The notes beneath the pieces are model-generated. The model searched no databases. It had not been told where the DNA came from and saw nothing but the letters and a program-made list of their open reading frames with translations. A stretch of 64,000 nucleotides of DNA from a virus (taxonomy: Duplodnaviria > Caudoviricetes): IMG/VR virus record IMGVR_UViG_2595698902_000001, positions 32,001-96,000 of that record, one strand, 5' to 3'. Positions 5,456-58,347 of this stretch are shown here, piece by piece (positions within the stretch are counted from its first letter, which is position 1; each line of letters opens with the position of its first letter). The position numbers and the translations under genes were made by a program.

Positions 5456-6550
5456 TTAACGGACCAGACGCTTGCCTTTAACTACGGAACGGTTGTTCGC
5501 CAGAACGAACGAGAACATTTCCGACAGCATCCAACCTTTGGCGGTCGAACCTTCAAACGCGTAGTCAACCGGAGTCGAACGGATACCGCCGCGAGTGGAG
5601 TACGAAGCGTGGTTTTCTGGCGAAGCAACAACGTAGATTTCGCCGCGATCCAGAACTTTCTGGTTTGGTTGGCGGAAACCGTCGGTCAGCAGGGTCAGAC
5701 CAACCAGAGTACCGAGCTGACCATTCAGGGCCAAGTCGTATTTGGTGATCGGATCGAGCATGGTTGCGAAATCGTTGGAACCGATAATATCGGACCAGAA
5801 TTCGTTGGAGATAATTGCGGTAGTGGCTGGCAGGTTCCAGTCAGTTACAGCAGTACGCAGACGACCGAGGTTTTTGGTGGTCAGTTCGCCAGCGATATAT
5901 TCCAGCGGGTTCATCATGCCAACGGTGGCGTCAGCAGCACGTTTCCACAGGCGGTCTTCTTGAACCATGATGCTTTGCAGAGCATCGTTGTAAGCGTGTT
6001 CCAGCAGGTCGCCGCTCACTTGTTCCATATCGAGAGCGTTCACACGAACGTTCGCGATAATCTCGAATTCGGCAGGCAGGAAAACGCGCTGGCGAATATT
6101 CTGATAACCAACGCCAGCAGGGCCGGTAGCCACAACAGCTTGGGTATCATGCGGAGGCATTGGAACGCGCTGAACTTCACCAGTGCGCAGGGTATTACCT
6201 ACCGACAGTTTACGCAGGAAACCGTCACGGTCGGCCTGTTCGTAAACTTGTTGAGCGATGTTTGCGCCCAGTGCTTCCCAGTTTTCTTTGGAAGCCATTG
6301 CATCGCGCATCAGAGCGGTGCGCTCTTCGCGGCTGGAAGCGGTGGCAACTTGTTGTTCTGGAACAACGGCGCCGCTTTGAACGGCATTCAGCAGGCGGTC
6401 AATTTGCAGCGCCAGATCGCGCTTGTCACTGGCGTTGAATTCGCCGGTAGCGCTGGACAGAGCCAGAGAATCATTTTTACCGTAGCGCAGTTCGGTCAAC
6501 GGCTCGCCGTTAGCCAGAACCATACGAGCACCTTGCATTTTGTTAAACAT
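5456..6550 (-). CDS. Major capsid protein (HK97 fold)
   Basis: 364 aa with strong RBS and strongly biased codon usage, downstream of scaffold/decoration genes; EFEIIANVRV, SIMVQEDRLW, GQLGTLVGL, GEIYVV, GWMLSE patterns typical of HK97-fold MCPs. Confidence 0.88.
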   Translation of the reverse strand: MFNKMQGARMVLANGEPLTELRYGKNDSLALSSATGEFNASDKRDLALQIDRLLNAVQSGAVVPEQQVATASSREERTALMRDAMASKENWEALGANIAQQVYEQADRDGFLRKLSVGNTLRTGEVQRVPMPPHDTQAVVATGPAGVGYQNIRQRVFLPAEFEIIANVRVNALDMEQVSGDLLEHAYNDALQSIMVQEDRLWKRAADATVGMMNPLEYIAGELTTKNLGRLRTAVTDWNLPATTAIISNEFWSDIIGSNDFATMLDPITKYDLALNGQLGTLVGLTLLTDGFRQPNQKVLDRGEIYVVASPENHASYSTRGGIRSTPVDYAFEGSTAKGWMLSEMFSFVLANNRSVVKGKRLVR

Positions 6551-22423: not shown

Positions 22424-24064
22424 TTAACCCTCTTGGAAATCGATGGACGAACCGAAGTTCCGAATGTCGGCGGTAAGCGAAACGCGTTTCGCAGGAATGG
22501 ACGGGTCGAGTACGAAATCGAGTTTCATATCGTTATTTGCAATCACGTCCGGGGTGTTGTTGGTCGTATCGCAAATGGTTGCCCAGCCAGTCAGGCCACG
22601 GTTACGCTTGATAACCCGCGCTTCTGTGTCCACCAGATTTTTGAGCTTTTTCCGCTCGAAATCATTGTTCGGGTTAAATACCGAAGGCAGGAACGATTTA
22701 CGAACCATTGCCTTGATACCGTTAACCAGACGGCGAACGTTAACGTTCTGGAAGTGCGACGGGAACGCCTGCAAAGTATTCTGTTCCATGATCACATAAC
22801 CACGGCCCGGAATCCGGCGAATGTAGTTAATCTGCGCTTGTTCCAATGCGTTGCGTTCTTGCAGGTTGTATTTCTTGGACAGGCCGGTAACTTTGACTTG
22901 ACCGCGATCCAAACCAGCTGGCGCCCAGTAGTATTTACGCACGCGGTCGGTGTACGCGTATGCAGCGGCAACCATGCCGGAAACTGGGCACATGAAACGA
23001 CGCCCAGTAACGTCATCTGTTACTTCGCCACGCGGACCGTACAGAGTGCCGTAGCTGCTGTTTACGTTGAGGATATTTCGACGGTAGTTTACAGCGCGAG
23101 AAACTTCCTCATATGCGTATGGCAAATCCATGATTGGAATTGCATCACCGCGTTTCTCTGCAATGCTCACCATATGGCGCTGAATTGCAGGGGTTTCGTA
23201 ACCGGCGCCGATCAGCAATTGCACGTCGTATTGGTCGGTATCTTCAATGCCGTCCCACGCTGCAATAATCTGACTTTCGCTTGGGCGATTACCGTCTTCG
23301 CCGCCGTCCAGACGTTCAAACGCGGTGGTACGGATTTCAACAGCCGGGCAAAGCTGGTTATTTTTGACCTTAATGTATTTCGAGAAGGTGTTAACCCGCT
23401 GCTCGACATACATTTGATTTTGTTCGCCGTCCAGCTCGTATTTACGCGAGCACAGGAACGATTCTACAGGGACGCTGGAATTACCGGAATAATTCAGGAA
23501 AACGTCAATGTAGAAATGAGTCGGGTCGTTAAACGCGCCGATTTCAGTTCCTTCCGGGTTTGCCGGGCGGACGCGGACGCTAATGGCTTTCGACCATTCG
23601 CCCGGAGAATTCGCGCAGATGAAAAGCAGGGCATTAGAGACGCCCGGAGTGCCGACAACAAAACCCAGCTCGGTCAGTGGATCGCCAAGCACGCCTTGCG
23701 GCTGGTTAGTACCGTTGTCGAAATTCACCAGTTTAATCACTGGTTCGGTTGCGCCAAGATCGTCAACGCTGAGGTAGGCGCCAGCGGTTCGGGCAGTCGC
23801 GGAATCAACCGCACGTTTTACCCAAAGAACAGTTTCCGCCAACGTGTGTTCGGCGCAGTGCATACCGAAAGCGTATTTGGAAATGTCTTTAATGCCGAAC
23901 TTCGTTTTCAGATCGCCGGTATCAGTAACGCGAACCCAATTGCGGGTATCGCCTTTCTGCGCCTCGATCACAATAGCGCCAACGGAGCTACTAACCTGCG
24001 AACCACGGATCGAACCGTCAAGATCGCGGTCATACACACCAGCGCTGGAGTCTAGAAAAGCCAT
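22424..24064 (-). CDS. Tail sheath protein 2
   Basis: SAGVYDRDLD..VGAIV, NSPGEW, LDGGEDG, WAPAGLDRG, NVRRLV, VFNPNN, ICDTTNNTP. Confidence 0.93.
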   Translation of the reverse strand: MAFLDSSAGVYDRDLDGSIRGSQVSSSVGAIVIEAQKGDTRNWVRVTDTGDLKTKFGIKDISKYAFGMHCAEHTLAETVLWVKRAVDSATARTAGAYLSVDDLGATEPVIKLVNFDNGTNQPQGVLGDPLTELGFVVGTPGVSNALLFICANSPGEWSKAISVRVRPANPEGTEIGAFNDPTHFYIDVFLNYSGNSSVPVESFLCSRKYELDGEQNQMYVEQRVNTFSKYIKVKNNQLCPAVEIRTTAFERLDGGEDGNRPSESQIIAAWDGIEDTDQYDVQLLIGAGYETPAIQRHMVSIAEKRGDAIPIMDLPYAYEEVSRAVNYRRNILNVNSSYGTLYGPRGEVTDDVTGRRFMCPVSGMVAAAYAYTDRVRKYYWAPAGLDRGQVKVTGLSKKYNLQERNALEQAQINYIRRIPGRGYVIMEQNTLQAFPSHFQNVNVRRLVNGIKAMVRKSFLPSVFNPNNDFERKKLKNLVDTEARVIKRNRGLTGWATICDTTNNTPDVIANNDMKLDFVLDPSIPAKRVSLTADIRNFGSSIDFQEG

Positions 24065-43427: not shown

Positions 43428-43761
43428 CTTTTTTCTTCTTTGCCAGAATTAGATGCTTAGAATTCCTACTCGACGCACATTGCGCGTGGCAGTCAGCGCA
43501 AAGGGTGCGCAGGTTCGCCATTATGGATAATCCGCCCTTGGCTACCGAGCGAATATGGTCTACCTGCAAATAGGACGTGGCCGGGCAACGTGTGCATTTG
43601 TAGCCATCACGTTTCAGAACTTTTTCACGGAGCGCCATCCAATCGCCAAACGATCCGTAGGCCTGTTCTTTCGTGCGGCGTACCTTCGCGACAACCTTGG
43701 CTTTACCCGGAGAAGAAATCACACTTTTTACACGCTTGGGCGCCACACGTTTTCTTTGCAT
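43399..43761 (-). CDS. HNH endonuclease
   Basis: W..LR..VLKRDGYKCTRC...LQVDHI....GG....NLRTLCADCH. Confidence 0.92.
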   Translation of the reverse strand: MQRKRVAPKRVKSVISSPGKAKVVAKVRRTKEQAYGSFGDWMALREKVLKRDGYKCTRCPATSYLQVDHIRSVAKGGLSIMANLRTLCADCHAQCASSRNSKHLILAKKKKDEAKNTLRH

Positions 43762-44528: not shown

Positions 44529-44550
44529 AACTTTCCCCACCACAACAGAC

Positions 44551-44574
44551 AAAAGGGGACCGAAGCCCCCTTTT
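44551..44574 (-). terminator. Rho-independent terminator with cUUCGg loop
   Basis: AAAAGGGGGC-TTCG-GTCCCC-TTTT. Confidence 0.85.
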
Positions 44575-44588
44575 GTATATTGCGAAGC

Positions 44589-45449: not shown

Positions 45450-45476
45450 AGGAATGTCTCCAGTTGGTTATATCAG

Positions 45477-46340
45477 TTAAATTACGAATTGTTTTAATTC
45501 AGCGTTCCACAAGTGTTTGAATTCATCACGAATAACAAACACCATCTTGCCACGCGGCAGGCCGGTTGTGTCCTTTGCTTCGGGGCTATGGAACGCATCG
45601 CTGTACAACTCACATCCAATTACCGTTCCCAGTTTGGCCTGAGATAGGATATCGCTTTTAGTAATCGGGTCCAGCATGGTTGCAAACAGATCAGAACCTA
45701 GAATGCTTGACCATGCGTCCGCATGAACCAAAACGTATTTGGATTTGCAGGCAAAACCCATCACGTATGCAGGCTCGGTTTCAATAAGTTCTACGTCAAG
45801 CTGTACGCCGTGAGTCATGGCTTCGGGCAACCGTTTAAAGTATTCCGAATTCGCTATTTCTTCCTGAACTGGGGTTGTCTCAGGAACGTCGTGCTTAGCC
45901 GCATGGTGCGGAACAAAAATCACTTTGCCTTGCGTTTCAGGCGAATGATCTTTCAGGTGCGGCGGCAGAAAGGCATCTGTGTAAACGCGACAATTGGCCA
46001 GCGTGCCTACGCTGCCATCCAGCACTAAATCGTAACGGGTGATCGGATCAAGCAAATAGGCCCAGTGATTCATGCTTGCGATGCTCGCCCACGCACTATT
46101 ATGGATGAGAACATAAGCAGCTTCTGCAAGATAAGGAAGCGCTTTATCGGGGTTGTCGAAAACGTTTTCGTCTACAATCTCGCCGTGCTCCAAAGCCTCT
46201 TGCAGCCTTACGAAATACTCACAGCCTGCCTGCTGTTCATCATCCGTCGTGTATTGCTTCGTCGGATGTTTTGCGGCAGTGGCCTCAAGCAGTTGCACAA
46301 TTTTTTCACGCAATTCTTCGTTACAAGGATGCTCGCTCAT
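45477..46340 (-). CDS. Protein made of two tandem copies of a major-capsid-protein segment
   Basis: WSSILGSDLFATMLDPITKSDILSQAKLGTVIGCELYSDAF and WASIASMNHWAYLLDPITRYDLVLDGSVGTLANCRVYTDAF vs MCP WSDIIGSNDFATMLDPITKYDLALNGQLGTLVGLTLLTDGF. Confidence 0.85.
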   Translation of the reverse strand: MSEHPCNEELREKIVQLLEATAAKHPTKQYTTDDEQQAGCEYFVRLQEALEHGEIVDENVFDNPDKALPYLAEAAYVLIHNSAWASIASMNHWAYLLDPITRYDLVLDGSVGTLANCRVYTDAFLPPHLKDHSPETQGKVIFVPHHAAKHDVPETTPVQEEIANSEYFKRLPEAMTHGVQLDVELIETEPAYVMGFACKSKYVLVHADAWSSILGSDLFATMLDPITKSDILSQAKLGTVIGCELYSDAFHSPEAKDTTGLPRGKMVFVIRDEFKHLWNAELKQFVI

Positions 46341-46367
46341 TTATTAAAACCCCATGTCATTTTAGTT

Positions 46368-47582
46368 TTAGAAGAAATTGCGGAAGAAACCGCCAGTAGA
46401 GCCACGGCCCGGATATCCCGGCAAACGCGTCATTGGTGTATTGGAAACACCCAATACGCCGAACGCTCGGCTGGAATCAATGAAGCCTCCGCCTGCGCCA
46501 CCATCGCCACCCAAAATGCCAGCACGACCCAGCAGTTTTTTGTATGGCTTTACCTGCGATTCAATTTGCGCATCGATACGACCCAGTGCGCTTTCGAGTG
46601 CAGGCGTGCGGTCTACGTTTAAGCTAACCGTTTGACCGCCGAAATCAAATGCTAACGAACCCTCTGCCAAGTTCTGCGAACCCAGCGCGTAAATTGCGGA
46701 ACAGGTCAACCAGCAATCAAGCAAAGCACCCTGCATATTCGTGCCGGTGAAATTCGTGATATTTGGTTGCAGACTGTTGAAGAAACTCAAGCCACGGCTC
46801 AAGTATTCCATGAGGTCGGATTGCGTGTATTCCAATTCAGGAATGATATTCGCAACTCGCGCCCGGTTAATGTAATCCTCAAGCTGGCGCGCAGCTGTAA
46901 GGATTTGCGGAGTAATCATCCACACTTTGTAGGTCAGCGTGGTTTTCGCCAGCTTGCGCGCAGGCGTATGATCAACCAGCAAAGTCAGCGGGAACATTTG
47001 CGCTTTACCTATCACGGTCGGCATATCAATAACGGTGCGCTTTGCTTGCGCTTCCACCTTGATTTGCGGATCGGTAACATCCCAATCGTTAAAGATCGTT
47101 TTGTTGTTGTAGAAAAGCGAAACGGTAAGGGAATCTCCCTCTTTTCCCGGCTTGGCTTTAATCCCATTTTTGAAGTCTGCGGGAGTCGCGGCAACAGGCG
47201 GTTTGTATTTGATCGGCACGGTCAATTGCATACGGGTATCACGCCCGCACAAAACAACCAGATCAGAGTCCCGCCCTAATGTCGCCGGTTCAACTGTGAT
47301 TTTTGTTCGCGCCTGATGGTGCCCATCCTGTCCTTGGAAAGTCCAGCGCGCAACTAAATCAACAGAGTCCCGCAAATCCATGTTGGGGATTGGCAAATCT
47401 GCCATCCATACGCCCGGCTGCGTGGCGTGGTTTTTGGCGTAGACCTCGGCAATCACGGATTTATCAACGTCAAACAATCGTACTAACGGCGCGGGGCTAT
47501 CCTCTGCCGGTAATACAGGATCGTCAAAATCGTCAAAGAATTCTTCTGTGATTGTGCATGTAGTGCCTTCGTAAACACTCAT
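46368..47582 (-). CDS. Putative neck / head-tail adaptor protein
   Basis: C-terminal helical region (YTQSDLMEYLSRGLSFFN..P; FDFGGQTVSLNVDR...L) typical of myovirus neck proteins; Gly-rich tail. Confidence 0.55.
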   Translation of the reverse strand: MSVYEGTTCTITEEFFDDFDDPVLPAEDSPAPLVRLFDVDKSVIAEVYAKNHATQPGVWMADLPIPNMDLRDSVDLVARWTFQGQDGHHQARTKITVEPATLGRDSDLVVLCGRDTRMQLTVPIKYKPPVAATPADFKNGIKAKPGKEGDSLTVSLFYNNKTIFNDWDVTDPQIKVEAQAKRTVIDMPTVIGKAQMFPLTLLVDHTPARKLAKTTLTYKVWMITPQILTAARQLEDYINRARVANIIPELEYTQSDLMEYLSRGLSFFNSLQPNITNFTGTNMQGALLDCWLTCSAIYALGSQNLAEGSLAFDFGGQTVSLNVDRTPALESALGRIDAQIESQVKPYKKLLGRAGILGGDGGAGGGFIDSSRAFGVLGVSNTPMTRLPGYPGRGSTGGFFRNFF

Positions 47583-48481
47583 TAGTCAATCACCCCTTGC
47601 GCCAACTTATTCGTCAGCGTTTCGATATCATGCAAAGCGGAATCATCCAGCGGCAATAGGCTCACCAATCCAGTTTCATCCGGCCCCACTTGGTTTTGCA
47701 CGTAACGCAACAGGAATTGGCGGATATTATCCTTTGCCTCTTCCTCATACTTTTCGTAGTATTTGCTACGGCGCCGCATGGGCAGATTCGGTGCAATGTA
47801 GCGGACATAGTATTCAGTGAATTTCGGTGTCCATTCTACCTGCAACAAATCCGGCATTCGTTTCCAGAAATCCAGAACGTATTTCCAGTCGGGCATTGCG
47901 GTGTAAAACATTGCCCGAGGGATGTTCTGCCGTAGAAACTTGGTTGCCGTTAAATCTACGCCACCACTGAATTCTCGCATGGAACGAATCACGGCTTTTG
48001 TGTAGCCGCCAGCGATATCAAAAAGATAACGCTGGTCGCGTTCCATCATTTGCTGCATACGCGCTCTGGTCAGCACAACCATCGGAATGGAAATGCTAAT
48101 GAATTCGTCCGATTGTACGTCGGTCGGTCCCCAAATTGCGGTGTACCCGCGCAGCCATGCGACATGCGCAGCTTTTGCAGCTTCGTTACGCTGAGTCCGG
48201 GCAAACGTGAAAACTAGACCAGTACGGCGCACATTCGCGGGCGGCAAATCAACTAGGCCGACGCTAGTGTTTGTGTACTGGCTCCAAACGTTCACTAGGG
48301 TAAACGTCGTTTTCGTCAAGAATGCTAACGGAGTTTTTCGCAATTGTTCCTCAAGGTAATCGAGGACCATTTTGATATCGATCAGGTAACGATCAGTGTT
48401 GTAAGTGGTGATGTAGCGGTCGCCACCGTAGGGCCATGCCGAAAGACGGAAATCTAACGGCATGGGAATGTAGATTTTCAC
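47582..48481 (-). CDS. Hypothetical protein, probably structural
   Basis: 299 aa in a late operon. Confidence 0.55.
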   Translation of the reverse strand: MKIYIPMPLDFRLSAWPYGGDRYITTYNTDRYLIDIKMVLDYLEEQLRKTPLAFLTKTTFTLVNVWSQYTNTSVGLVDLPPANVRRTGLVFTFARTQRNEAAKAAHVAWLRGYTAIWGPTDVQSDEFISISIPMVVLTRARMQQMMERDQRYLFDIAGGYTKAVIRSMREFSGGVDLTATKFLRQNIPRAMFYTAMPDWKYVLDFWKRMPDLLQVEWTPKFTEYYVRYIAPNLPMRRRSKYYEKYEEEAKDNIRQFLLRYVQNQVGPDETGLVSLLPLDDSALHDIETLTNKLAQGVID

Positions 48482-49683
48482 TTCAACACAAGGCTGTAGG
48501 AGTGCATGTTGCCGTCGATAGAACGCAGCGAACGTGCATAACCAGATTTAACCAGCTTGGCGATATTCGGGAATCGATCAAACGCACGCAGAATCTGCGC
48601 CTGAATTTCGCGATCACCTTCGGGGAATTCCAGCAGCACTTCGTTATTTTCAACGGTAATGCCGGTAATGCCTTCGATAGCACCGACGCGGGCCTGCACT
48701 TCGGTAGCGTCAAGATTCAAATCAGCTTTAACGCTAAACGTTACGACTTCGTGCAGCGCCACTTCGCGCTCTACGCGGTTGATCAGTTTGTTTGCGATAT
48801 CGGCGGTATCTTTACCAGCAACTGGGCGGCCAATTTCGTATTTGTTCGGCAGCACAATACGGTCGTGAACATTCACGAAAGTAGTGAGGTTGAATTTGTC
48901 ATCAGCCGGAGCCAGACGCGCAGTAACCACAACTACCAACGCTTTGTGGAAGCCGTTGGTCATGTCGCGCCAGTGAGTGATATCGATGTTGAAAACGAAA
49001 TCAGTAACGCCGTCTTTGGTGCCGATGTTGACGAAATAGCCAACGGTGTCGGCATCGTCCAGCTCTTGCTGCGCGTCGGTTACGTCTTCACCTGCTTCTT
49101 TGCGGGCATCGATTTCTTTTTGCGCAGCTTCGATACGGGCACTTTCGATTTCTTCAAAATGCTTTTGCACACGGAAGAAAAGGTCATTAACTGCTGGCGG
49201 GGTATTACCCTTCGACAGTTCGGTCATGCCGTTAATGGCTTCCATGTACAGATCAACCATTGCGCTATGACGTTCGGTCATTGGTACAATTTCAGCGCGC
49301 ATACGTTCGTTCTCGGTTTTCGAGCACGCTTCGATAATCGCTTCAATCTGATCAATTGCATCGCGCATTTCCAGCGCGTCGAGGTTTTTCTGTAGCTGGC
49401 GTGGACCGGGCAAATCCAGTTTATCGACAACCAGCGAATGACCAGAACGACCACCAATTTTCTTTGGTCTGCCGCCTACGTCATCGCTGCCGCCACGAAC
49501 TTCGATAACGCTTACGCCCGAGGCAGTAGCGAGGTGACGGCCACGGAATACTTTACCGAACAAAGTACGCAGCAGACTGGTAAACTTGGAAATCAGTTTG
49601 CTGTAGCGGCCTTCGTTCTTTTTGTAGTATTTCAGCGCCTGCTCTGGCGTCATCCGTCGGATATAGCTGTAGTCTTTTTTCAT
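48478..49683 (-). CDS. Putative virion protein
   Basis: 401 aa; HLATASG motif. Confidence 0.55.
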   Translation of the reverse strand: MKKDYSYIRRMTPEQALKYYKKNEGRYSKLISKFTSLLRTLFGKVFRGRHLATASGVSVIEVRGGSDDVGGRPKKIGGRSGHSLVVDKLDLPGPRQLQKNLDALEMRDAIDQIEAIIEACSKTENERMRAEIVPMTERHSAMVDLYMEAINGMTELSKGNTPPAVNDLFFRVQKHFEEIESARIEAAQKEIDARKEAGEDVTDAQQELDDADTVGYFVNIGTKDGVTDFVFNIDITHWRDMTNGFHKALVVVVTARLAPADDKFNLTTFVNVHDRIVLPNKYEIGRPVAGKDTADIANKLINRVEREVALHEVVTFSVKADLNLDATEVQARVGAIEGITGITVENNEVLLEFPEGDREIQAQILRAFDRFPNIAKLVKSGYARSLRSIDGNMHSYSLVLK

Positions 49684-49686
49684 TCT

Positions 49687-50685
49687 TTAAGAATCCATGA
49701 TTGTGTTGAGTTTATCTTTCTCAGTCTTGCCGACGTTGAGCAGTTTTGTCAGCTTGTTAAGAGAGCGTGCATCATAGATTTTTCGTTTACCTACGATGAA
49801 CGAAATCATCTTGTTGTTACCGTACTGGGATACGCGGTGGATGATATCCGTGTTCGGCAGATTCACGGCCCGGCGCAGGTACGGCAAAACCCGCTGCAAA
49901 AACTTGTTGATATCGTCCGGTTGAACAAACGATTTCAGCACAACGTTTAAGCGGTCTTCGGTGACTTCGATGTTCTTAACCAGCTTAGACGCCAACAGCT
50001 TATCGTCTTTCGGTTCGGGCGTGCCGATATACTCGAAATCCGACAGGTTATTGGTTAGATACAGTTGAACATCCTTCGCAGTATCCACGCGTGATTCGTC
50101 GCTGGAAACATACGGAGAATCTGGAACGGAAATGCGATATTCCCCACCGAGCAAAGTGAGTTTAACGGTAATGGGACCACTAACGAATCCGTTAGCGTCG
50201 GCAATACCGCCGTCCGTGCGGAAACAAATCATTTGATAGTCAGGCAAACGGACGTGCAATTGCGTGGTGTGGCTAATCTTCGATAGCAGCTTGTAAACAG
50301 GCTCTGCCAGATAGCTCAAGTGCTTGTCCATTCGAGTGGAACAAACACCATCAATCAGATTCAAAAGGCTCTTTTGGAAATCGTGAATGTTGGACTGCAT
50401 AACGCCAATCATTTGGAAACAGCGGTCGCGTTTGGAATCGCTGAATTCCTGCACAATGGATCGAGCACAACGCAGTTCAAGCAAAGAATCAACGCAAAAC
50501 GTAAGCGCTTCAACACCATCCGACACTTTCAGCTGGGATAGTTTCTTTTGGTTGAATTTGGAAACCAAAACGCTAGTGGTCATGTTAATGCGGTTTAATA
50601 CAGCGACAACCTCATTGGCGTTTCGGGCGTTTTTTAGATCAATGACGTTCTTTGAGTCATCAATATACTTTGATTGTATTTGCAA
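49687..50685 (-). CDS. Putative virion protein
   Basis: 332 aa, TTG start with AGGTG RBS, TAATTTT element at 50721-50727. Confidence 0.55.
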   Translation of the reverse strand: MQIQSKYIDDSKNVIDLKNARNANEVVAVLNRINMTTSVLVSKFNQKKLSQLKVSDGVEALTFCVDSLLELRCARSIVQEFSDSKRDRCFQMIGVMQSNIHDFQKSLLNLIDGVCSTRMDKHLSYLAEPVYKLLSKISHTTQLHVRLPDYQMICFRTDGGIADANGFVSGPITVKLTLLGGEYRISVPDSPYVSSDESRVDTAKDVQLYLTNNLSDFEYIGTPEPKDDKLLASKLVKNIEVTEDRLNVVLKSFVQPDDINKFLQRVLPYLRRAVNLPNTDIIHRVSQYGNNKMISFIVGKRKIYDARSLNKLTKLLNVGKTEKDKLNTIMDS

Positions 50686-50740
50686 TGCTCGAACACCTAA
50701 GAATATGGTGGGTATATCGTAAAATTACCGTCCAGATAGC

Positions 50741-50776
50741 AAAAAACCCGCCTTTCCTAATGGATTGGCGGGTTTT
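50741..50776 (-). terminator. Rho-independent terminator
   Basis: AAAACCCGCC...GGCGGG-TTTTTT. Confidence 0.85.
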
Positions 50777-50803
50777 CTGTATTACCTTAACTCAACCTAG
50801 AAA

Positions 50804-52093
50804 TCAGGAGAAGCTAAGTTTCTTCGGCATAGCGCCGCTTTGTTTCTTCACTGCGCCACCGCTGGCCTTGGCAGCTGGTTTAGCAGCGGCGGCTGGTTTA
50901 GCGGCAGGAGTTTTCTTGCTTGGGGTTTTCTTGTCAGCTTTAGCTGGTTTTGCGGCGGGTTTAGCTGCCGGGGTTTTCTTCGGACGACCCGGAGATTTTT
51001 TAGCTGGCTTTTCAGCTGCGGCTGGAGCGGCTGCGGCTGGGGTTTTCTTTGGACGACCCGGAGCCTTCTTCGGGGTGCCGTCTTTTTTCACGCCATGCGG
51101 AGCTGCCGGAGCGGCTGCGGCTGGGGTTTTCTTTGGACGACCCGGCTTTTTCTTTTCAGGCGCTGGAGCTGCTGGAGCTGCGGCGGCTGGAGTCTTTTTC
51201 GGACGGCCCGGTTTTTTCTTTTCTGGAGCGGCGGCTACTGGAGCGGCAGCGGGAGTCTTTTTCGGACGACCCGGTTTGCGTTTTTCAGGAGCGGCTGCGG
51301 CTGGGGTTTCAGCCGGTTTTACTTTTGGCTTACGGCCCGGAGTTTTAGCCGGGGTGCCGTCTTTTTTCAGCTTTAGACCCGAGGTTGCTGGGGCTGCGGC
51401 TGGAGCAGCGGCTGGAGTCTTTTTAGGACGACCCGGAGATTTCTTCTGAGCACCACCAGCGGCTGGCTTCGGATCAGTATTTACCAGACGTTTGCCTTTC
51501 GAGCTGATTGGCTGCTTCTGGAAGTTGCTGATGAAATCTTTCAGGCGGAACGCACCTTTCTTCTTGCTCGCCTTTTTGATTTTATCAACCACTTTCGAGT
51601 GGGCCTTGGTGGACTTCATACGCTCGGCTGCCAGAGCAGAACGCTCTTGTGCGTAACGCTGCTTTTCAGCAGTGCGCAGTTGAGCACGCTTGGCCGGGGT
51701 GACTTTGAGGTCACGGATTTTTTGCAGAGCTTTTTTGTGCTTGCTTTGTACCTGACCGCTCTTTTTACGCAGCGCTTCACGCACTTGACGCTGAGCATCA
51801 CGGGCGGATTTCAGCTGGCCGGCAGCGTGAGTACCGGCGTGGCGGTGCTTACGGCGACGAACATAGGCAGCTTTAGCTTTTTTGGCTTCGGCTTCGGTCG
51901 CACCGTGGCGCATGGCACGCAGGAAAACTTGGTGGGCCAAGTGAGCCAGTTTGTCCTCATGGGACATTTTCTGGTATTTCTCTTTGGCCTTTTTGTTGAT
52001 TTTGTGCTTATTCTTTTTGTAATAAGCTTTGTGTTTCTTGGCGTCCTTGACGACCTCGGCGCCCTTTTGCTTCTGTACAGCTTTAGTAGCCAT
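50804..52093 (-). CDS. Histone H1/HMGA-like basic DNA-binding protein with AT-hook-like repeats
   Basis: 429 aa, Lys/Ala/Pro-rich; six KxxPGRPKKTPAA units plus TPGRKPK and KPAA repeats; GAGG RBS; monocistronic. Confidence 0.8.
   Translation of the reverse strand: MATKAVQKQKGAEVVKDAKKHKAYYKKNKHKINKKAKEKYQKMSHEDKLAHLAHQVFLRAMRHGATEAEAKKAKAAYVRRRKHRHAGTHAAGQLKSARDAQRQVREALRKKSGQVQSKHKKALQKIRDLKVTPAKRAQLRTAEKQRYAQERSALAAERMKSTKAHSKVVDKIKKASKKKGAFRLKDFISNFQKQPISSKGKRLVNTDPKPAAGGAQKKSPGRPKKTPAAAPAAAPATSGLKLKKDGTPAKTPGRKPKVKPAETPAAAAPEKRKPGRPKKTPAAAPVAAAPEKKKPGRPKKTPAAAAPAAPAPEKKKPGRPKKTPAAAAPAAPHGVKKDGTPKKAPGRPKKTPAAAAPAAAEKPAKKSPGRPKKTPAAKPAAKPAKADKKTPSKKTPAAKPAAAAKPAAKASGGAVKKQSGAMPKKLSFS
50960..51446 (-). 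repeat. Intragenic tandem repeats encoding PGRPKKTPAAA
   Basis: Recurrent GGACGACCCGG / GCGGCTGG blocks on the plus strand. Confidence 0.9.
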
Positions 52094-52120
52094 CGGGATG
52101 TTCCTCGATTAAAGGTTTGT

Positions 52121-52174
52121 TTAGGTTGGCTTTAATCGTAGCGCCACGATGCTAACCAACTTAATCCTAAATTA
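52121..52174 (-). promoter_or_regulatory. Putative late promoter TAATTTA plus long leader hairpin
   Basis: TAATTT-AGGA-TTAAGTTGG...ATCGT..ACGAT...CCAACCTAA. Confidence 0.55.
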
Positions 52175-52239
52175 GTATGTAAAAACAAATACGCTTTTGC
52201 GACCTAACCCGAGGAACCGCCCCAATAACTACCGTTTTA

Positions 52240-53295
52240 TTACACGCTAAAACCGAGCTGATTACAGGTGGCTTTTGCTTCTTTTAATGCGCGTTTGATT
52301 TCTTTTTTATCGAAACCTTCGGATACGAGGAAATCCGCTAATCCTGAAAGGGGATCAATATCCGACCGATCAATCGTAAATACTTCCTCAGTATCTACGC
52401 CCTTTTTATCACCTTCGCCAACCCAAACAATGCCACCAGTGATATTCGGATATTGCAGCATTAAATCAGGAGGCAAAGGAACCTCACGATCAATATGCAG
52501 CTTATAGCGAATATTCTGGTCGTTTTTAAGCTTTTTGTAATCGTTCAAATCGTTGATGAAAACGTTTTCCAGCGTGAAGCCCGGTTTATTCTCAACGAAC
52601 TTGTGTTTAACGTCTACAACGTCACCGTCCAGCGTGGCCTTGAAATGCACAAAACCTTTCGGTAATGCCTCGCCGAAATTCTTCTGGAACGGATTACCGC
52701 AATACACAGCACGTTTCGCTTTCATGTACTGGTATTGGTGGATGTGTCCGCTAATGGTGAAATCGTTTTTATGCGTGACCAATTCCTGCTTGGTTTTGAG
52801 GGCACGCCCATTATCACCAATTGCGCCGCTGTATTCAACGTGCGCGAAATTCAATGCACCCTGCTTTTTGCTCAGGGTTTTCAAACACGGATAAGGCAGC
52901 AGGTTTACCGGCACGCCTTCTATTTCGATACGCTCCGGTTTCAAGATAATGCGCAGGTTTTTGAAGGCGCGAGTCTTGGTCAGACGCTGCATGAAATTCA
53001 TCGCCATCTTTTCGATGTTTTCAAAGTCGTGATTGCCCGCGATGTAGATGATGGTTAGCAGCTTGTCGTATTTGTAGAACAGATTAAACAGCGCGGTGTA
53101 GGTGTCAAACGGCAGGTTCGGATGATCGGAAATATCACCGGGAATCATCACGTATTTAATGCCGTTATTCAGCGCGTATTGGAACATCTTTTCTGCTTCT
53201 GCGAGGATACGTGCATCGCCATCCTCGAAATGCTTATTCAGCCCGGTCAGGTGCCAGTCGCTGGTCGCAATACCTTCAAACGATTTGATAGCCAT
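52240..53295 (-). CDS. sbcD: SbcD/Mre11/gp47-like DNA repair exonuclease
   Basis: SDWH, PGDISD, AGNHD, AH, SGHIH, YCGNPFQKNFGE metallophosphoesterase motifs. Confidence 0.92.
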   Translation of the reverse strand: MAIKSFEGIATSDWHLTGLNKHFEDGDARILAEAEKMFQYALNNGIKYVMIPGDISDHPNLPFDTYTALFNLFYKYDKLLTIIYIAGNHDFENIEKMAMNFMQRLTKTRAFKNLRIILKPERIEIEGVPVNLLPYPCLKTLSKKQGALNFAHVEYSGAIGDNGRALKTKQELVTHKNDFTISGHIHQYQYMKAKRAVYCGNPFQKNFGEALPKGFVHFKATLDGDVVDVKHKFVENKPGFTLENVFINDLNDYKKLKNDQNIRYKLHIDREVPLPPDLMLQYPNITGGIVWVGEGDKKGVDTEEVFTIDRSDIDPLSGLADFLVSEGFDKKEIKRALKEAKATCNQLGFSV

Positions 53296-53326
53296 AAATC
53301 CTGCTCTAATTGTGCCGTCTTCTATC

Positions 53327-53336
53327 TATTTACAGT
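53327..53336 (-). promoter_or_regulatory. Putative phage promoter ACTGTAAATA
   Basis: 32 nt upstream of the SbcD start. Confidence 0.72.
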
Positions 53337-53767
53337 TAGCCCGTACCGGCTATACCACGCTCTAGTTCGCGTGTGATCGTGGTCTTAAATACGATCTTTT
53401 CTAGAGGACGATCAGGCCTCCAGTCATACGAAACAATAACGCTGTGTTTTCTACCACGGCCAACCTTATTTGCTTTGCGGCGACCCCGCAGGATTACACG
53501 ATCAACCTGCTTACCGTCTTCGTCTAGCAATGCGACTTCGCAGCGGTTTTTTCTATCGCGAATTGTGTAGGATTCGACAAGGTGAGATTTGACGTTGAAA
53601 AAGTCTGGCGTTTTGTGGCGAGCCAATGCGCGCTCAAGTACCGCTTGGCACTCGTTCATCATTTGGGCGCGCTGCTGTTCGGGCGTTTGCTCTACATGCA
53701 GGGCCTCGTAAATACGGCGCTGGATTTCTTTGAGCAAACGCATTTGGTTTATTTCTTCGAGGCCCAT
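53336..53767 (-). CDS. Stand-alone tail-sheath C-terminal-domain-like protein
   Basis: LEEINQMRLLKEIQRRIYEAL..EQ.....RAQMMNECQAVLE and IVSYDWRPDRPLEKIVFKTTITR align to the sheath C-terminal consensus; AAGGA RBS. Confidence 0.55.
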   Translation of the reverse strand: MGLEEINQMRLLKEIQRRIYEALHVEQTPEQQRAQMMNECQAVLERALARHKTPDFFNVKSHLVESYTIRDRKNRCEVALLDEDGKQVDRVILRGRRKANKVGRGRKHSVIVSYDWRPDRPLEKIVFKTTITRELERGIAGTG

Positions 53768-53776
53768 TGTTGTTCC

Positions 53777-54403
53777 TTAGCGGAGTTTGATCAGCTGGCC
53801 GGGGAAAATCAGGTCAGGATTTTTCAGATTGTTAATGCGCGCCAGTTCGCGCCAATCGGTGCCGGTGTACATGCCGATTTCGGACAACGTATCGCCCGCA
53901 CGGACGCGGAAATACCCAACGCGAATAGCAGCGATAAATTCCGAATAATTGTGAACGATGCTAAGGGCACTGCGATCCACACTATCCGGTACGTTGTCAA
54001 TCATGGCCTGTACAGCTAAAGGCAGGTTATCTGCAATTGCGTTGTCGCACAGGAATTCCGGCTCAGCGGGCTTCCACATTTTTGCGAACTTCAAAACGTT
54101 TGGCACGTTGTCCGATTCGACTGGCTCAACCACAAGGCAGGTGGCCGCGCCGTTGCAGATGGTATTTTCGTGGCCCGCCCAGCAAGTGAGCGTGTTACGA
54201 ATCTTTTCAAATTCGCGGTGATTCACTTTCAGTACGACTTTGCGGAACGAGCGGCGGTGCCAATCGTTGTACCACTCAAGCTGCTCATGAGAACGACCGG
54301 GCGAAGTGAAAAATTCGTGTGCATTCAGCATCGAATGGGCGACCAGCGTAGGCACCATGTAATCCGGCGCTTCGTCAATTACCGCAATGTACATTTTCTT
54401 CAT
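53777..54403 (-). CDS. Pth2 (peptidyl-tRNA hydrolase 2)-like domain fused to LysM
   Basis: KMYIAVID...VAH...W...FRKVVLKV...E...TCLVVEP; C-terminal YFRVRAGDTLSEIG...WRELARINNLKNPDLIFPGQLIKL. Confidence 0.78.
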   Translation of the reverse strand: MKKMYIAVIDEAPDYMVPTLVAHSMLNAHEFFTSPGRSHEQLEWYNDWHRRSFRKVVLKVNHREFEKIRNTLTCWAGHENTICNGAATCLVVEPVESDNVPNVLKFAKMWKPAEPEFLCDNAIADNLPLAVQAMIDNVPDSVDRSALSIVHNYSEFIAAIRVGYFRVRAGDTLSEIGMYTGTDWRELARINNLKNPDLIFPGQLIKLR

Positions 54404-54410
54404 CGGAATC

Positions 54411-54911
54411 TCACAGATATTCGTCGAGTTTGGTAATGCCTGCGCGAGTGCAATATTCCATCAGCGTGCCAATGCAATATTCGTCAATGTGCCCGGCGCG
54501 AAGGTCGGCTAAATCTTCGTGCGTGATCATCAATTGCGTGCAGAGTGCTACGTCGTCTTTGCGCGATGCTTTGATCCAGCGGTTCAATGTACGCAGGATA
54601 CGGGCTTTAATGCGTAGCTCGTCACGCATACAGTCTTCGTCAATCAGCGAATCCCACACATCAGGAACTGGTTTTTGCGGTTCGCGGTAGGAATCGGTAA
54701 TCAGCGTCACGTCTTCGCTAAGCTGGGTGATTTTGCGCTCAGGCGTGTCCTCGACCACACGCGGATAGGTAACGGTATTTTTCGGACCTGTTTCAGACGG
54801 CACCACAATCGCGCCCATTCCGTGCAGTGTGATATCCACATTGAGATTATTATTCTCCACGTCTTCCGGCGTATTGTTGGTTTCGTCGCAAATGACTTCG
54901 TAGTTACTCAT
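54411..54911 (-). CDS. Protein with N-terminal tail-sheath ICDxTNNTP motif and C-terminal XRE/HigA-like HTH
   Basis: YEVICDETNNTPEDVENNNLNVDITL; C-terminal helices LCTQLMITHEDLADLRAGHIDEYCIGTLMEYCTRAG. Confidence 0.65.
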   Translation of the reverse strand: MSNYEVICDETNNTPEDVENNNLNVDITLHGMGAIVVPSETGPKNTVTYPRVVEDTPERKITQLSEDVTLITDSYREPQKPVPDVWDSLIDEDCMRDELRIKARILRTLNRWIKASRKDDVALCTQLMITHEDLADLRAGHIDEYCIGTLMEYCTRAGITKLDEYL

Positions 54912-55729
54912 TCCATACCTTCCTTTTTCTCGACGCCAGAATTAATGGCTCGGATATAACGCATTTCGTAGGCACTGATTTTTAACTTCATCGCTACGTC
55001 GTCTTCATCGCCTTCCATCTGCAACGCTTTGCGGTACAGATCGACCACTTCGCCGCTCAGCAAATCCATCAATTTGGCGACTTGTTTGTCAGTCAATTTG
55101 ATTTTCTTGCTAAGCGAGGCAACCCGCGATTGCAGTTGCTTTTCGGTTTCCGTCGAGGCCAACCATTTGCACACAAGCTGGCGCACCGGGGTTTGGTGGG
55201 TAGCAGACGGCATGGTATAAACGAACGACATGAAATTCATCAGGAAAGTATGCTGTTCGCGAGCGACTTTCTTGGCCGCTTCCACCACGTCGAATTTGGT
55301 ACGCGTGATATGCTGCTGCTTTGACGCAGGAATGCTTTTGAAATCGACAAGATTAAACCCGTCAACGTGGAACGCTTCCGCTGCTTTGTAGTCTACCGGA
55401 ATCACGTTGTACATCGACAGGGAAATAGGATCGTCACAGACGTAGCAAATGGTTTTATCAGTGATGCTTTTGCGGTGCGCCTCAAACGTAAACACGTCAG
55501 AGAAAATCACATGCTTGCGCTGCTCAAACTTGGCAGGGCTAGCCACAAGCGCAATGGCGGATCGTGGCGTACCGAGTTTGCGCAGGTGAACCAAAACTTT
55601 GTCAGGCGCAGTGTGCGCAAACCCGTATGCGATCATTTCTTTTTGCTCTTTCTGACTTGTTTCAACAGGCTGGCGGTCATCGCTTTCGCGCTCACGTCGA
55701 ACCGATAGGAGGCCATGAAATACGTACAC
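54908..55729 (-). CDS. Hypothetical protein (possible C-terminal HTH)
   Basis: 273 aa; start uncertain; ends EDDVAMKLKISAYEMRYI. Confidence 0.6.
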   Translation of the reverse strand: MYVFHGLLSVRRERESDDRQPVETSQKEQKEMIAYGFAHTAPDKVLVHLRKLGTPRSAIALVASPAKFEQRKHVIFSDVFTFEAHRKSITDKTICYVCDDPISLSMYNVIPVDYKAAEAFHVDGFNLVDFKSIPASKQQHITRTKFDVVEAAKKVAREQHTFLMNFMSFVYTMPSATHQTPVRQLVCKWLASTETEKQLQSRVASLSKKIKLTDKQVAKLMDLLSGEVVDLYRKALQMEGDEDDVAMKLKISAYEMRYIRAINSGVEKKEGME

Positions 55730-55766
55730 ATGTTCGCGTATTTCAGGTTACGCATTTCAACCGTTT

Positions 55767-56048
55767 TCATCGAACGTCACTCAGTTTGGCGCCCGCTTTG
55801 CATAACTCGTAAGTCATGCGCGACAGGCTGGTAAGATCGAGCACAAAAGAAACGGCAACATCGAAGCTTTCTTCGCGCCACTGTACACCGAGAATGCACG
55901 GATAAAACGTTGGCAATTCGTCCTCGTTACGAACGTAGGGCAAATCACCATTTCGTTCGTCGTCATTGTCGGCGTACACGGCACGCAGGAAATCGTCTAC
56001 TTCGCGTTTGTCTTTTACGACTTTTGCGTAGACGCTAGCTGGCAGCAT
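55767..56048 (-). CDS. Hypothetical protein
   Basis: Likely start ATG 56048 overlapping the SbcC end. Confidence 0.55.
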   Translation of the reverse strand: MLPASVYAKVVKDKREVDDFLRAVYADNDDERNGDLPYVRNEDELPTFYPCILGVQWREESFDVAVSFVLDLTSLSRMTYELCKAGAKLSDVR

Positions 56049-58347
56049 CGTATCGAACACTGGAAACCCCTTTATGTTTCGTGACTGTAACGTAAGAGCA
56101 CTTCGGATGGGAGTGCTTGCCCTTTTGCGTGATGATGAAAACTTGTGGAACAATTCGGCGCAGGAACGGCACGTAACGCTCGACAAAAAGATTCGTCGTG
56201 GCTGCGTCCATGTGCGCGTCGGGTTCGTCAAGAATAGCCAAGTTAACCCGGCGATCATCCTTCGCCATAATCACACAGGCAAGGAAGTGTAGCAGACGGA
56301 AACTATCCGATTCAGCGCCGGACAATTCGCGCACGTCGGAAACGTTACCTTGGCCCCGGTCTACCGTAATATGCACGCCGTCTTCTTTCGCCACTACTTC
56401 AAACTTGAACGGCTCAGCGAAAATCAGCTGTGCATGTTTGTTGTAGTTTTGCTGGAGGCCGTAAACGATTTCGTGCATCGCATTTCGTTTCAAGCCCTTG
56501 CTGGAGTAGGCTTTCGCCATAGCACGGTACAGCTTGAGCTTGGCAATTAGCGGGTTGATTTCTTCAAGCTTTGTGCTCACTTCATCGCGCTGTTTGGTCA
56601 GCAGTTTATGCTCAGCGCGATAGGCGTTGTATTTCACCGTAACCTTGTGGGCTTTGGTGTATTTCTTCTCAACCTTTTTCAGTTGCTTTTCGACTTCCTT
56701 GAGCTGGGCTGCAAGATTGTCGTTTTCCGGCACTTCATCGAATTCAGCGAGGCGCGCTTCCAGACGTTTGATATCGTCCAGCATTTCCGCGTGCGCTTCC
56801 AGTTCTTCGACCGTCATGGAGGCCGAACCTTTCGGCTTCTTCGGCTTTTCCAGTTCGGAAAGCTGTTCGTTGATTTCGTCAATCCGCACAGAGTTTTCCA
56901 GCTTCTCTTGTGCGTCGTCTATTGCAGCGCGCAGCTTTTTGATTTGCTTGCGTGCCCTGTAGAAACCTTCCTCGTCGAAGCCCAGCTTTTCGATGATTTC
57001 GGTATTCTTGGCTTTGGTCATCCGAATGTCCAGCGCATGGATCATCGAATGCAAAATGCCTTTGCGTTTCTTCGCCGCTTTGACAGTGGCTTCAATGTCT
57101 TTGAGGTTTACTTTCTGGTGACAGGTCGGGCACTGGTCGCCGCCTTCGTGGTTGTGCAGCAGGTCAGCAAGTTTAAGCGTGGTTTTAACAACGCTCATTT
57201 CTTCCTGCAAAGTATCCATCGGATTGAGCTTTGCTTTGTTGCAGCGCGACAGGAACGCCCGCAGCTCCGGCTCGGTGTGATCGTCAAGGTTTTCCAATTC
57301 GCGCACGGCTGCGTCGTGTTTGTCGCGAATTTTTACCAGACGTGCATCGTCCGCTTCCAGCTTGTCGAGTTCTTGGCGCATGGCTTTTACAGAGCCGCGC
57401 AACTCTTTGCCACCAACCGCACCGCCCAGCTCTTCCAGCTTAGCCTTGAGCTTTTTGGAGCGGCGATTGTAATCCTGCAAAGCGTCTTCGTATTTCTCCA
57501 ACGCTTGCAAGTATTTGTACTGCTCTTTCAACTCGGCTTTGGTGAACTTTACTTTGCCCTTGAGTTTCTTGAGCTGCTTTGTCGTCTCCGCGTAAAACTC
57601 TACCTGCTTCAACAGGCTTTTGAGTTCCTGTCGCTTGGACTGCAATTTGGTAACTTTTTTCGACGTGGCCTTAACCGTTTCGGTAGCTTCGTCCAGTTCC
57701 TTTTGCTTGTCGCGGTTCCACCCGTTTTTATTCAGGGCGTCATTGATATTCAGCAGGTTGTGTGAGTGAACGTCGGCCTTGTTTTGCGCGATTTTTACTT
57801 CGTCTACTTTCTTTTCGTAGAACCGACGCAGCACGTCGAACTGATCTAGGCGCCACACATCGGTAATATACGACATTCGCGCACGCGGCGTACCGTACAG
57901 GAATTCCAGTTTCTTCTGCGATTGCAGATGCACGTAGGAATACCATTCCTCGGTTGTCAGCGGAATGATTTTCTCAATCTGCTCCCGCTGCGCGGCCTGT
58001 CCGCGTACCTGCAAATCAACGCCGTCGCGGAAGATTTTGTAACCAGAACCTTCCTGCCGAATTGTCCACTTGTGCCCAAGGTTGTTCACGTCAAATTCAA
58101 TGAACGAACCTTTGGAGTGAATGCGGTTTTTCTTGCGGGTATCTGCCAACGGCGTCTGCTCGAAACGCACGTTGGGCAGCATGGAGAACAGCAAGGATTT
58201 ACCAGCGCCGTTATTCTGATCTTTTGCAATCAGGGAATCGCGGTTGTGACCGCTAACCGTAGTCAGGCCGCAGTTGTTGGTAAAATCAAACTCGCCTTTC
58301 TTGTAGGAAACGATGCCCTCGAAACGGCTGCCGGTAATCTCGATCAT
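56035..58347 (-). CDS. sbcC: SbcC/Rad50/gp46-like ATPase
   Basis: NNGAGKS Walker A, Q-loop, long coiled coil, CPTC zinc hook, LSGAE signature, ILDEP Walker B. Confidence 0.93.
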   Translation of the reverse strand: MIEITGSRFEGIVSYKKGEFDFTNNCGLTTVSGHNRDSLIAKDQNNGAGKSLLFSMLPNVRFEQTPLADTRKKNRIHSKGSFIEFDVNNLGHKWTIRQEGSGYKIFRDGVDLQVRGQAAQREQIEKIIPLTTEEWYSYVHLQSQKKLEFLYGTPRARMSYITDVWRLDQFDVLRRFYEKKVDEVKIAQNKADVHSHNLLNINDALNKNGWNRDKQKELDEATETVKATSKKVTKLQSKRQELKSLLKQVEFYAETTKQLKKLKGKVKFTKAELKEQYKYLQALEKYEDALQDYNRRSKKLKAKLEELGGAVGGKELRGSVKAMRQELDKLEADDARLVKIRDKHDAAVRELENLDDHTEPELRAFLSRCNKAKLNPMDTLQEEMSVVKTTLKLADLLHNHEGGDQCPTCHQKVNLKDIEATVKAAKKRKGILHSMIHALDIRMTKAKNTEIIEKLGFDEEGFYRARKQIKKLRAAIDDAQEKLENSVRIDEINEQLSELEKPKKPKGSASMTVEELEAHAEMLDDIKRLEARLAEFDEVPENDNLAAQLKEVEKQLKKVEKKYTKAHKVTVKYNAYRAEHKLLTKQRDEVSTKLEEINPLIAKLKLYRAMAKAYSSKGLKRNAMHEIVYGLQQNYNKHAQLIFAEPFKFEVVAKEDGVHITVDRGQGNVSDVRELSGAESDSFRLLHFLACVIMAKDDRRVNLAILDEPDAHMDAATTNLFVERYVPFLRRIVPQVFIITQKGKHSHPKCSYVTVTKHKGVSSVRYDAAS

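Follow-up and report, generated by a model that had tools for sequence, protein, structure and literature searches.

Why a bacteriophage should carry, besides complete genes for its capsid and tail sheath, small intact genes that each resemble one piece of those proteins is the question raised by three open reading frames (ORFs) of IMG/VR virus record IMGVR_UViG_2595698902_000001. The window analysed here is a stretch of 64,000 bases corresponding to bases 32001-96000 of this 280,538-base record, which is rated complete and comes from a jumbo myophage of 280.5 kb; among cultured phages its nearest relatives are Pseudomonas phages HRDY3 and, at a greater distance, PaBG. Nearly all long ORFs of the window lie on the minus strand, and PHROG and Pfam scans identify among them a tail tube, a pair of sheath paralogs, a major capsid protein (MCP) of the HK97 type and a prohead protease, together with a DNA polymerase, its clamp and clamp loader, a 2054-residue SNF2 helicase, SbcC and SbcD. 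Passages of PMC7412058 give the possession of two sheath proteins as a hallmark of the PaBG group. The three genes in question are P0001, a tandem relative of an MCP segment, P0002, a relative of the sheath C-terminal domain, and P0003, in which a sheath loop precedes a helix-turn-helix (HTH) domain. All three are, with high probability, exapted and selected copies of virion-protein domains, and the comparisons described below suggest that they arose long ago by the copying of a domain or sub-domain of the lineage's own virion proteins.

The original prediction for this region, made from the letters of the DNA and its ORFs, had described P0001 as a tandem MCP segment, and this description stands. 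In BLASTP comparisons with the MCP of the same phage, residues 74-130 of P0001 match MCP residues 242-298 (25 of 57 identical, E 6e-10) and residues 204-269 match MCP residues 246-308 (29/66 identical, E 1e-9), while phrog_2522 'major head protein' and the NCBIfam model NF042927 'HK97-fold major capsid protein' each match the protein in two stretches, at profile positions 198-268 of 318 (E 2.9e-14) and 167-235 of 280 (E 2.4e-13) respectively. The NF042927 score of 49.7 bits lies below the cut-off of 80, and P0001 does not present the complete capsid fold. As only the central part of the capsid profiles is covered, the two repeats, each of about 115 residues, are assigned to the core of the axial (A) domain, and P0001 is devoid of the N-arm, E-loop and P-domain. 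Compared with one another the repeats show 39% identity (E 2e-28) and have no repeat in common at the DNA level, so that the duplication is old. P0001 is closest to the MCP of its own phage (44% identity), with 40% identity to the capsid protein of HRDY3 and 34% to that of PaBG. An AlphaFold2 (AF2) model built from a 25-row alignment has a mean confidence (pLDDT) of 77.8, high in repeat 1 and lower in repeat 2, and HK97-fold capsid or encapsulin entries make up 26 of the best 50 rows when VIA is run over 48,161 chains.

Database searches place P0001 in a so far unnamed family whose members are stand-alone A-domains, present once or in tandem, and are encoded at a variable site next to a head-tail connector gene and at other sites. 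A word-indexed search of 5.8 billion proteins returned one relative only (97% identity), and tblastn against 50,697 phage records gave a single place per record, where, among the matches listed, most are annotated capsid genes and the rest are labelled 'hypothetical' or 'Phage protein'. When 1.84 billion cluster representatives were searched with an A-domain profile, 114 matches at E <= 1e-3 were obtained. By rules of length and coverage set in this analysis, 46 of these have the length of an MCP, 12 are single domains (112-169 residues) that cover the whole profile, 10 are tandem proteins (<330 residues) and 46 are other short proteins, several of which look like truncated MCPs and are nested among MCPs in a tree. 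The stand-alone family comprises at least 22 cluster representatives (clusters at 50% identity). In the tree, built with FastTree from 61 columns and midpoint-rooted, support values not being examined, both P0001 repeats, three syntenic orthologs and the single-domain proteins of about 115 residues form one clade apart from the MCPs, a grouping which is suggestive. No Pfam entry, PHROG or NCBIfam model of its own was found for the family, 24 members having been scanned for Pfam and PHROG. Loci of the single-domain members of about 115 residues were not recovered in two viral and two metagenome scans, two loci that were returned being devoid of a family member.

The distribution of P0001 is patchy. 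Among 14 loci in which the connector gene and the conserved gene that follows it are both present, an A-domain homolog lies exactly between the two in four (the window, L004, L006 and L013), the three orthologs being single-domain proteins of 127-173 residues. The site, at 45450-46367 of the window, is empty in HRDY3, in L005, in L007-L009, which are three near-identical contigs, in L010-L012 and in L014. Its equivalent in PaBG (L052 10216-10656) holds a peptidase M15; gp196, the PaBG product at this site, was considered as a member of the A-domain family and rejected as a true peptidase M15. Outside the window, this genome has a second, diverged tandem A-domain gene (239 residues), whose neighbour is a DHFR-like ORF (gene at G000:C1:171861-172547; L050 1471-2190, minus strand). 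Genes of this second type also occur in the related genomes G001 and G002 and in HRDY3 and were not found in G003-G006; no P0001-type copy was found elsewhere in G001 or G003-G006. The number of A-domain genes differs between phages. Downstream of the second tandem gene, an ORF of 110 residues (L050 1108-1440) has by eye the appearance of a further single module and is not matched by the family profile.

Near-identical copies of the whole stretch are present on contigs from four metagenome runs belonging to four studies. Among the substitutions listed for P0001, 11 of 15 are synonymous and 4 non-synonymous, and among the variants listed for the neighbouring genes 22 are synonymous and 3 non-synonymous, figures that come from a partial list (646 further rows) in which the P0001 changes are clustered within about 150 bases. 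This pattern indicates purifying selection on P0001, as an indication and not a measurement. Over longer distances P0001, taken whole or per repeat, is 37-54% identical to its orthologs as against 78-82% for the adjacent connector protein, and P0001 therefore evolves fast. The reading frames of P0001, P0002 and P0003 are intact in all relatives found; neutral decay, which the original prediction had named as an outcome that would count against it, is disfavoured by these intact frames and by the preponderance of synonymous changes in P0001.

P0002 itself matches no Pfam or PHROG entry, and its pairwise BLAST comparisons with the two sheaths are not significant (E 0.23 and 32). The sheath C-terminal-like domain that had been proposed for it is borne out at the level of the family by several lines, each of them modest. 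Homologs with 26-36% identity lie beside SbcD in every HRDY3-subgroup relative that covers the site and make up 14 clusters at 90% identity, HRDY3 being the only cultured phage with a member. The top PDB match of a profile of seven members is the tail sheath 9ev2 (E 0.036, query residues 2-60 to chain residues 545-606), and hhalign of the family against an alignment of 14 sheaths is colinear over P0002 residues 2-133 and sheath residues 417-516 (probability 63%, E 7e-5). The commonest Pfam match is Phage_sheath_1C (PF17482), which is seen in 4 of the 7 members, with a best E of 0.0011, and in 4 of another 11, with a best E of 0.00025, at positions 7-88 of 104 and with scores that are all below the cut-off of 26.9 bits (best 21.5). 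In VIA the AF2 model of P0002 (pLDDT 70) finds at the top the sheath of phi812 (Z 7.0), a chain from an Anabaena injection system (Z 6.7), the gp25-like protein 2ia7 (Z 6.4, 93 residues aligned of 111) and the phiCD508 tail (Z 5.9); at middling Z-scores the best 50 rows include eight contractile-tail or injection-system entries, ranks 1, 2 and 4 among them, and two gp25- or baseplate-like entries (ranks 3 and 46). The type VI secretion system baseplate chain 6gj1_D is matched with Z 4.6. No match at E <= 1e-3 was obtained with this model by Foldseek against the PDB, and an ESM Atlas search with P0002 returned nothing usable. The colinear profile-profile match and the likeness in fold are modest, and with all lines agreeing they point to P0002 being a copy of the sheath C-terminal domain.

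What distinguishes the P0002 family is an insertion of some 35 residues, with the motif GRRKAxKVGR, which stands in place of the sheath TNNTP loop. The family invariants are D71, K73, N74, C76, V78, L80, D82, G95, R96, R97, A99, K101, G103 and R104, and all 14 of these invariant non-start residues sit inside this basic insertion. Residues 67-76, an invariant 'Y-x-I-H/R-D-x-K-N-R-C', resemble a motif of the OB-fold protein uS17, a likeness that is not significant (E 0.24). A distant relation to gp25 is left possible by the fold likeness to 2ia7, and JGI lists one relative as 'phage baseplate assembly protein W'. PF04965 (GPW_gp25) was matched by none of the 18 family members scanned with Pfam; the same genome holds a second gp25-like candidate, at G000:C1:175604-175858, that does match PF04965 (E 2.2e-4 and 1.2e-3).

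P0003 begins with the sheath-type element that its description as a carrier of the sheath ICDxTNNTP loop had led us to expect. By BLAST its residues 1-29 share 12 of 29 identities with residues 491-519 of sheath 2 (E 7e-7), the hairpin shares 10 of 19 with sheath 1 (E 3e-4), and two sheath PHROGs match the protein (E 7.8e-6 and 5e-4). In relatives the hairpin motif is found at the N-terminus of the corresponding ORFs with 64-83% identity while the rest of the protein diverges; in P0008, a close relative, the loop is eight residues shorter and both strands are kept. The HTH_37 family (PF13744) is also annotated in P0008 and in a further relative, P0007, and it is in these two proteins and in the window that hairpin and HTH domain are fused by a linker of about 50 residues, a short linker being found in L004-L006. 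Elsewhere the two are split, the hairpin ORF (61-190 residues) lying upstream of an HTH ORF of 91-96 residues; they are directly adjacent in HRDY3, L013 and L037 and are separated by an ORF of 110 residues in L007-L009. Since these neighbouring genes have repeatedly been fused, the arrangement points to a functional link in which hairpin and HTH parts probably work together. P0003 is an Xre-type HTH protein that has a sheath hairpin as its N-terminal extension. Relatives of the HTH part alone, annotated as HTH or XRE, are encoded by jumbo phages of Pseudomonas with genomes of about 270 kb. A capsid A-domain motif seen by eye at P0003 residues ~57-83 (window 54675-54740) was rejected (BLAST E 0.13-0.76, HMM scores of at most 8 bits), as was a similar by-eye likeness at the C-termini of the split hairpin ORFs of L007 and L013, for which the same statistics give no support.

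P0001, P0002 and P0003 alike derive from domains of virion proteins and are without the parts for building a shell or a sheath. That the three form one 'system' was, by contrast, not upheld. P0001 lies about 7 kb from the sheath-derived genes, in another gene array behind the connector gene, and its presence varies independently of theirs: it occupies its site in 4 of 14 loci, and P0002 is found in every covering relative of the HRDY3 subgroup. The array of P0001 includes, by synteny, a homolog of PaBG gp191, which is a virion protein according to Table 1 of PMC7412058. A terminator-like hairpin in the intergenic gap after the ORF at 44589-45449 is possibly where the transcription unit of P0001 ends; across 44000-58500, sites that resemble promoters or terminators are no commoner than in shuffles. 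As had been stated, P0002, P0004 and P0003 lie between SbcC and SbcD. They form a compact block, spaced by 7-40 bases and with an overlap of 4 bases at its upstream end, P0002 being 9 and 40 bases from its neighbours, among them SbcD, and the SbcC-SbcD block is completely different in PaBG. The LysM domain between the two sheath-derived genes is real, its P0004 match scoring 39.8 bits against a cut-off of 20.9; the link to the virion suggested for it was not sustained, P0004 being a fusion of LysM with a PTH2-like domain (24.8 bits, cut-off 23) that matches no virion-protein family. The PTH2 and LysM parts are separate genes in L004-L006, and the HRDY3 homolog of P0004 is annotated as an endolysin.

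Features of the window discussed in the text, with positions counted from its first base
Feature	Position	Strand	Evidence
P0001, 287 residues, tandem stand-alone copy of MCP A-domain core ('mini-MCP')	45477..46340	-	homology to own MCP
P0001 repeat 1 (residues 31-148)	45897..46250	-	hmmsearch envelope; 44% identity to MCP 242-298; pLDDT mostly >85
P0001 repeat 2 (residues 156-274)	45519..45875	-	hmmsearch envelope; 44% identity to MCP 246-308; lower pLDDT
P0002, 143 residues, copy of tail-sheath C-terminal ('handshake') domain with invariant basic insertion (residues ~71-104)	53336..53767	-	profile and fold
P0003, 166 residues, whole gene; start overlaps stop of upstream ORF 54908-55729 by 4 bases	54411..54911	-	
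P0003 N-terminal sheath-type beta-hairpin (residues 1-30, ICDxTNNTP loop)	54822..54911	-	
P0003 HTH_37 DNA-binding domain (residues 96-159)	54435..54626	-	PF13744, E 1.8e-6, 28.1 bits against cut-off of 27
P0004, 208 residues, PTH2-like domain and LysM	53777..54403	-	PF01981, E 2.7e-5; PF01476, E 4.3e-10
SbcD-like nuclease, directly downstream of P0002	52240..53295	-	
SbcC-like ATPase, upstream end of variable block	56035..58347	-	phrog_77, E 6.9e-66
Head-tail connector gene, directly upstream of P0001	46368..47582	-	phrog_17327, E 1.3e-199
Terminator-like hairpin after ORF 44589-45449	44551..44573	-	8-pair stem, intergenic gap
Major capsid protein, parental (P0006, 364 residues)	5456..6550	-	phrog_2522, E 8.3e-119
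Tail sheath paralog 1 (530 residues)	1058..2650	-	phrog_23, E 2e-76; PF17482
Tail sheath paralog 2 (546 residues)	22424..24064	-	phrog_23, E 5.7e-73; PF17482 above cut-off

Several other genes of the window deserve mention. The ORF of 429 residues after SbcD (50804-52093) has a strongly skewed composition and by position corresponds to PaBG virion protein gp191; its homologs in the HRDY3 group are rich in Lys, Ala and Pro and of variable length, and a 129-base duplication-like joint is seen at this ORF on one metagenome contig. A putative ORF of 163 residues (55767-56258) shares 224 bases, read in another frame, with the 3' end of SbcC and aligns to HRDY3 with 52% identity over 162 residues. 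The SNF2-type helicase gene (36269-42433) has by synteny PaBG gp202 as its counterpart, which Table 1 of PMC7412058 includes among the virion proteins, and an HNH endonuclease gene (43399-43761) lies inside the conserved block between helicase and connector and is also present in HRDY3 and PaBG.

For the capsid fragment, a possible function is suggested by the host side. In a 2026 preprint (10.64898/2026.01.04.697583), Avs7, Avs8 and Avs10 are reported to recognise monomers and to bind the MCP A-domain on its penton- or hexon-forming face, and MCPs are reported to be recognised by Dsr1 as well, through a homologous sensor domain. Because these sensors bind the A-domain face, an isolated A-domain could compete with the MCP for them, cap MCP monomers, or itself trigger the sensors. 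Overall, the explanation that we consider the best, and hold tentatively at somewhat short of an even chance, is that the three genes encode exapted domains acting via inherited interfaces, with P0001 engaged in conflict with the host. Each protein would act through a protein-protein interface inherited from its parent. The A-domains of P0001 would present or cover the capsomer-forming face that Avs7, Avs8 and Avs10 sense on monomers, the protein either competing for the sensor without activating it (a sponge) or capping those capsid monomers that are free (a shield). For P0002 and P0003 the likeliest mode of action would be the binding of sheath subunits or their exchange strands, by which P0003 would link DNA binding with tail-assembly state. 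The patchy presence of P0001, its site with swappable cargo, the variation in copy number and the fast divergence under constraint are what is expected of a host-interaction gene. A decoy role of this capsid fragment, as had been envisaged at the outset, or a shield role is conceivable, its probability ranging from doubtful to no better than that of the overall explanation. The PADLOC defence-protein library gave no match.

Certain observations weigh against this explanation. A copy of the epitope that triggers a sensor might activate the sensor instead of blocking it, and the array of P0001, with the connector gene and the gp191 homolog, would fit a role in assembly too. The parental fold of P0001 is supported strongly by sequence and weakly by structure: Foldseek with the P0001 model gave nothing at E <= 1e-3 against the PDB, the best rows being capsid proteins with E of 0.27 or more, the VIA Z-score never exceeds 4.9, and repeat 2 fits the C-domains of Pelota/eRF1 equally well as repeat 1 fits capsids. 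The substitutions that speak for purifying selection are, as noted, a partial and clustered set. For the model of P0002, Foldseek ranks OB-folds and not sheaths first (E 0.014-0.1, not significant), and the location of its invariant residues in the insertion and not in the sheath-like part would suggest a new function such as nucleic-acid binding.

Assembly is the main rival for P0001, and more broadly the three genes could be accessories of morphogenesis, with P0001 an assembly chaperone, capsomer cap or decoration protein that attaches to the capsid protein's A-domain while the head assembles, P0002 a gp25/TssE-like initiator, terminator or regulator of sheath polymerisation and P0003 a regulator of late genes. 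We regard this as rather unlikely, yet it finds support in the position of P0001 right after the connector gene in an array with the gp191 counterpart, with the terminator-like hairpin after the next gene, in the match of the P0002 model to the gp25-like 2ia7 and to 6gj1_D, and in the baseplate name given to one P0002 relative. Set against this, P0001 is missing from its site in 10 of the 14 loci and no such copy was found elsewhere in G001 or G003-G006, so that it is not needed for building the virion, and for P0002 the genome has its separate gp25-like candidate, PF04965 is matched by no scanned member of the family, and the gene is packed among recombination genes and not tail genes. Another reading, to which we give the same rather low weight, is that the scaffolds have been re-used for new functions, with P0002 a nucleic-acid binder working with SbcCD, P0003 an Xre regulator or antitoxin-like protein whose hairpin binds a non-virion partner, and P0001 a binder of a host target. 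Its basis is the presence of every P0002 invariant in a basic insertion that the sheath lacks, the weak likeness of P0002 to OB-folds and uS17, the tight spacing of the gene with its neighbours and the existence of stand-alone relatives of the P0003 HTH part in other Pseudomonas jumbo phages. Neither the likeness to OB-folds nor that to uS17 is significant, however, and the P0003 hairpin keeps its sheath motif while the rest of the protein diverges, suggesting that the sheath-like feature itself is under selection. For P0002 taken singly, a new function, maybe nucleic-acid binding, is about as likely as sheath binding, being made plausible by the invariant basic insertion and the SbcCD neighbourhood.

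Two further explanations are less probable. The fragments could interfere with co-infecting relatives or tailocins by poisoning foreign capsid or sheath assembly as dominant-negative subunits, and in keeping with this they have no parts for a complete assembly unit and belong to a family confined to one jumbo-phage clade, whose members co-occur in wastewater and aquatic metagenomes; but with P0001 closest to the MCP of its own phage, it is the phage's own assembly that would be poisoned first, and we consider interference improbable. That the genes are neutral leftovers of partial duplications, or that the similarity is due to chance, is more improbable still, even though the P0003 match is short (about 30 residues) and P0002 has no significant pairwise match with the sheaths, given frames that are intact in every relative, invariant alignment columns, the excess of synonymous changes listed for P0001, conservation of the sheath motif across relatives and the agreement of independent profile and fold evidence. 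Inherited interfaces, with P0001 directed at the host, continue to be our favoured reading. A bolder extension of it, which we think unlikely, would have stand-alone A-domains be a widespread and unrecognised jumbo-phage counter-defence that copies the surface sensed by Avs7, Avs8, Avs10, Dsr1 and other pattern-recognition receptors, so as to titrate the receptor with no activation or to cap capsid monomers up to the time of their assembly, while the copy of the sheath 'handshake' domain and the hairpin-tagged repressor read the pool of unassembled sheath; if true, spare virion interfaces would serve both in hiding from the host and in timing phage gene expression.

A literature search, mostly of abstracts and with partial coverage (including parts of PMC13728456), gave no description of stand-alone A-domain genes or capsid-fragment decoys, from which novelty is not proven. 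Avs7, Avs8, Avs10 and Dsr1 would represent the host side of the interaction proposed for P0001, and the passages of preprint 10.64898/2026.01.04.697583 report no phage-encoded copies of the A-domain. Capsid and sheath folds are usually seen as whole building blocks, and this clade keeps single interface domains as independent, selected genes, which, whatever their function, are clear cases of virion-protein domains exapted for other roles. With the A-domain family in particular one could ask, directly and at little cost, whether phages respond to sensing by structure with copies of what is sensed.

Comparison with better-known proteins places the three genes in context. T4 gp24 is an MCP paralog at the capsid vertices that keeps the whole fold and forms pentons. 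P0001 likewise stems from the duplication of an HK97-fold capsid gene within a large myophage; its family differs in keeping the A-domain core only, single or in tandem, and in being dispensable in most relatives. With gp25, TssE and gpW (PF04965), P0002 shares the character of a small stand-alone protein with a sheath C-terminal fold, whereas by sequence it is nearer to PF17482, has the invariant basic insertion and sits between SbcC and SbcD. Antitoxins of the HigA2 type combine a C-terminal HTH domain with an N-terminal extension that binds a partner, and P0003 resembles them in having a C-terminal HTH_37 domain and a short N-terminal segment that could bind one; in P0003 the extension is a copy of the sheath hairpin, and no toxin-like partner was found. 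The sheath-domain copy with its basic insertion and the fusion of hairpin and HTH are new architectures. For P0001 the closest parallel in logic is DSAD1, a phage protein that reportedly blocks DSR2, a sensor of a virion protein, such that in both cases, as proposed here, a sensor would be kept from reacting to a structural protein. To our knowledge, the known phage inhibitors of virion-protein sensors are not copies of the trigger; P0001, unlike DSAD1, would be a candidate for an inhibitor that is a copy of the sensed domain itself.

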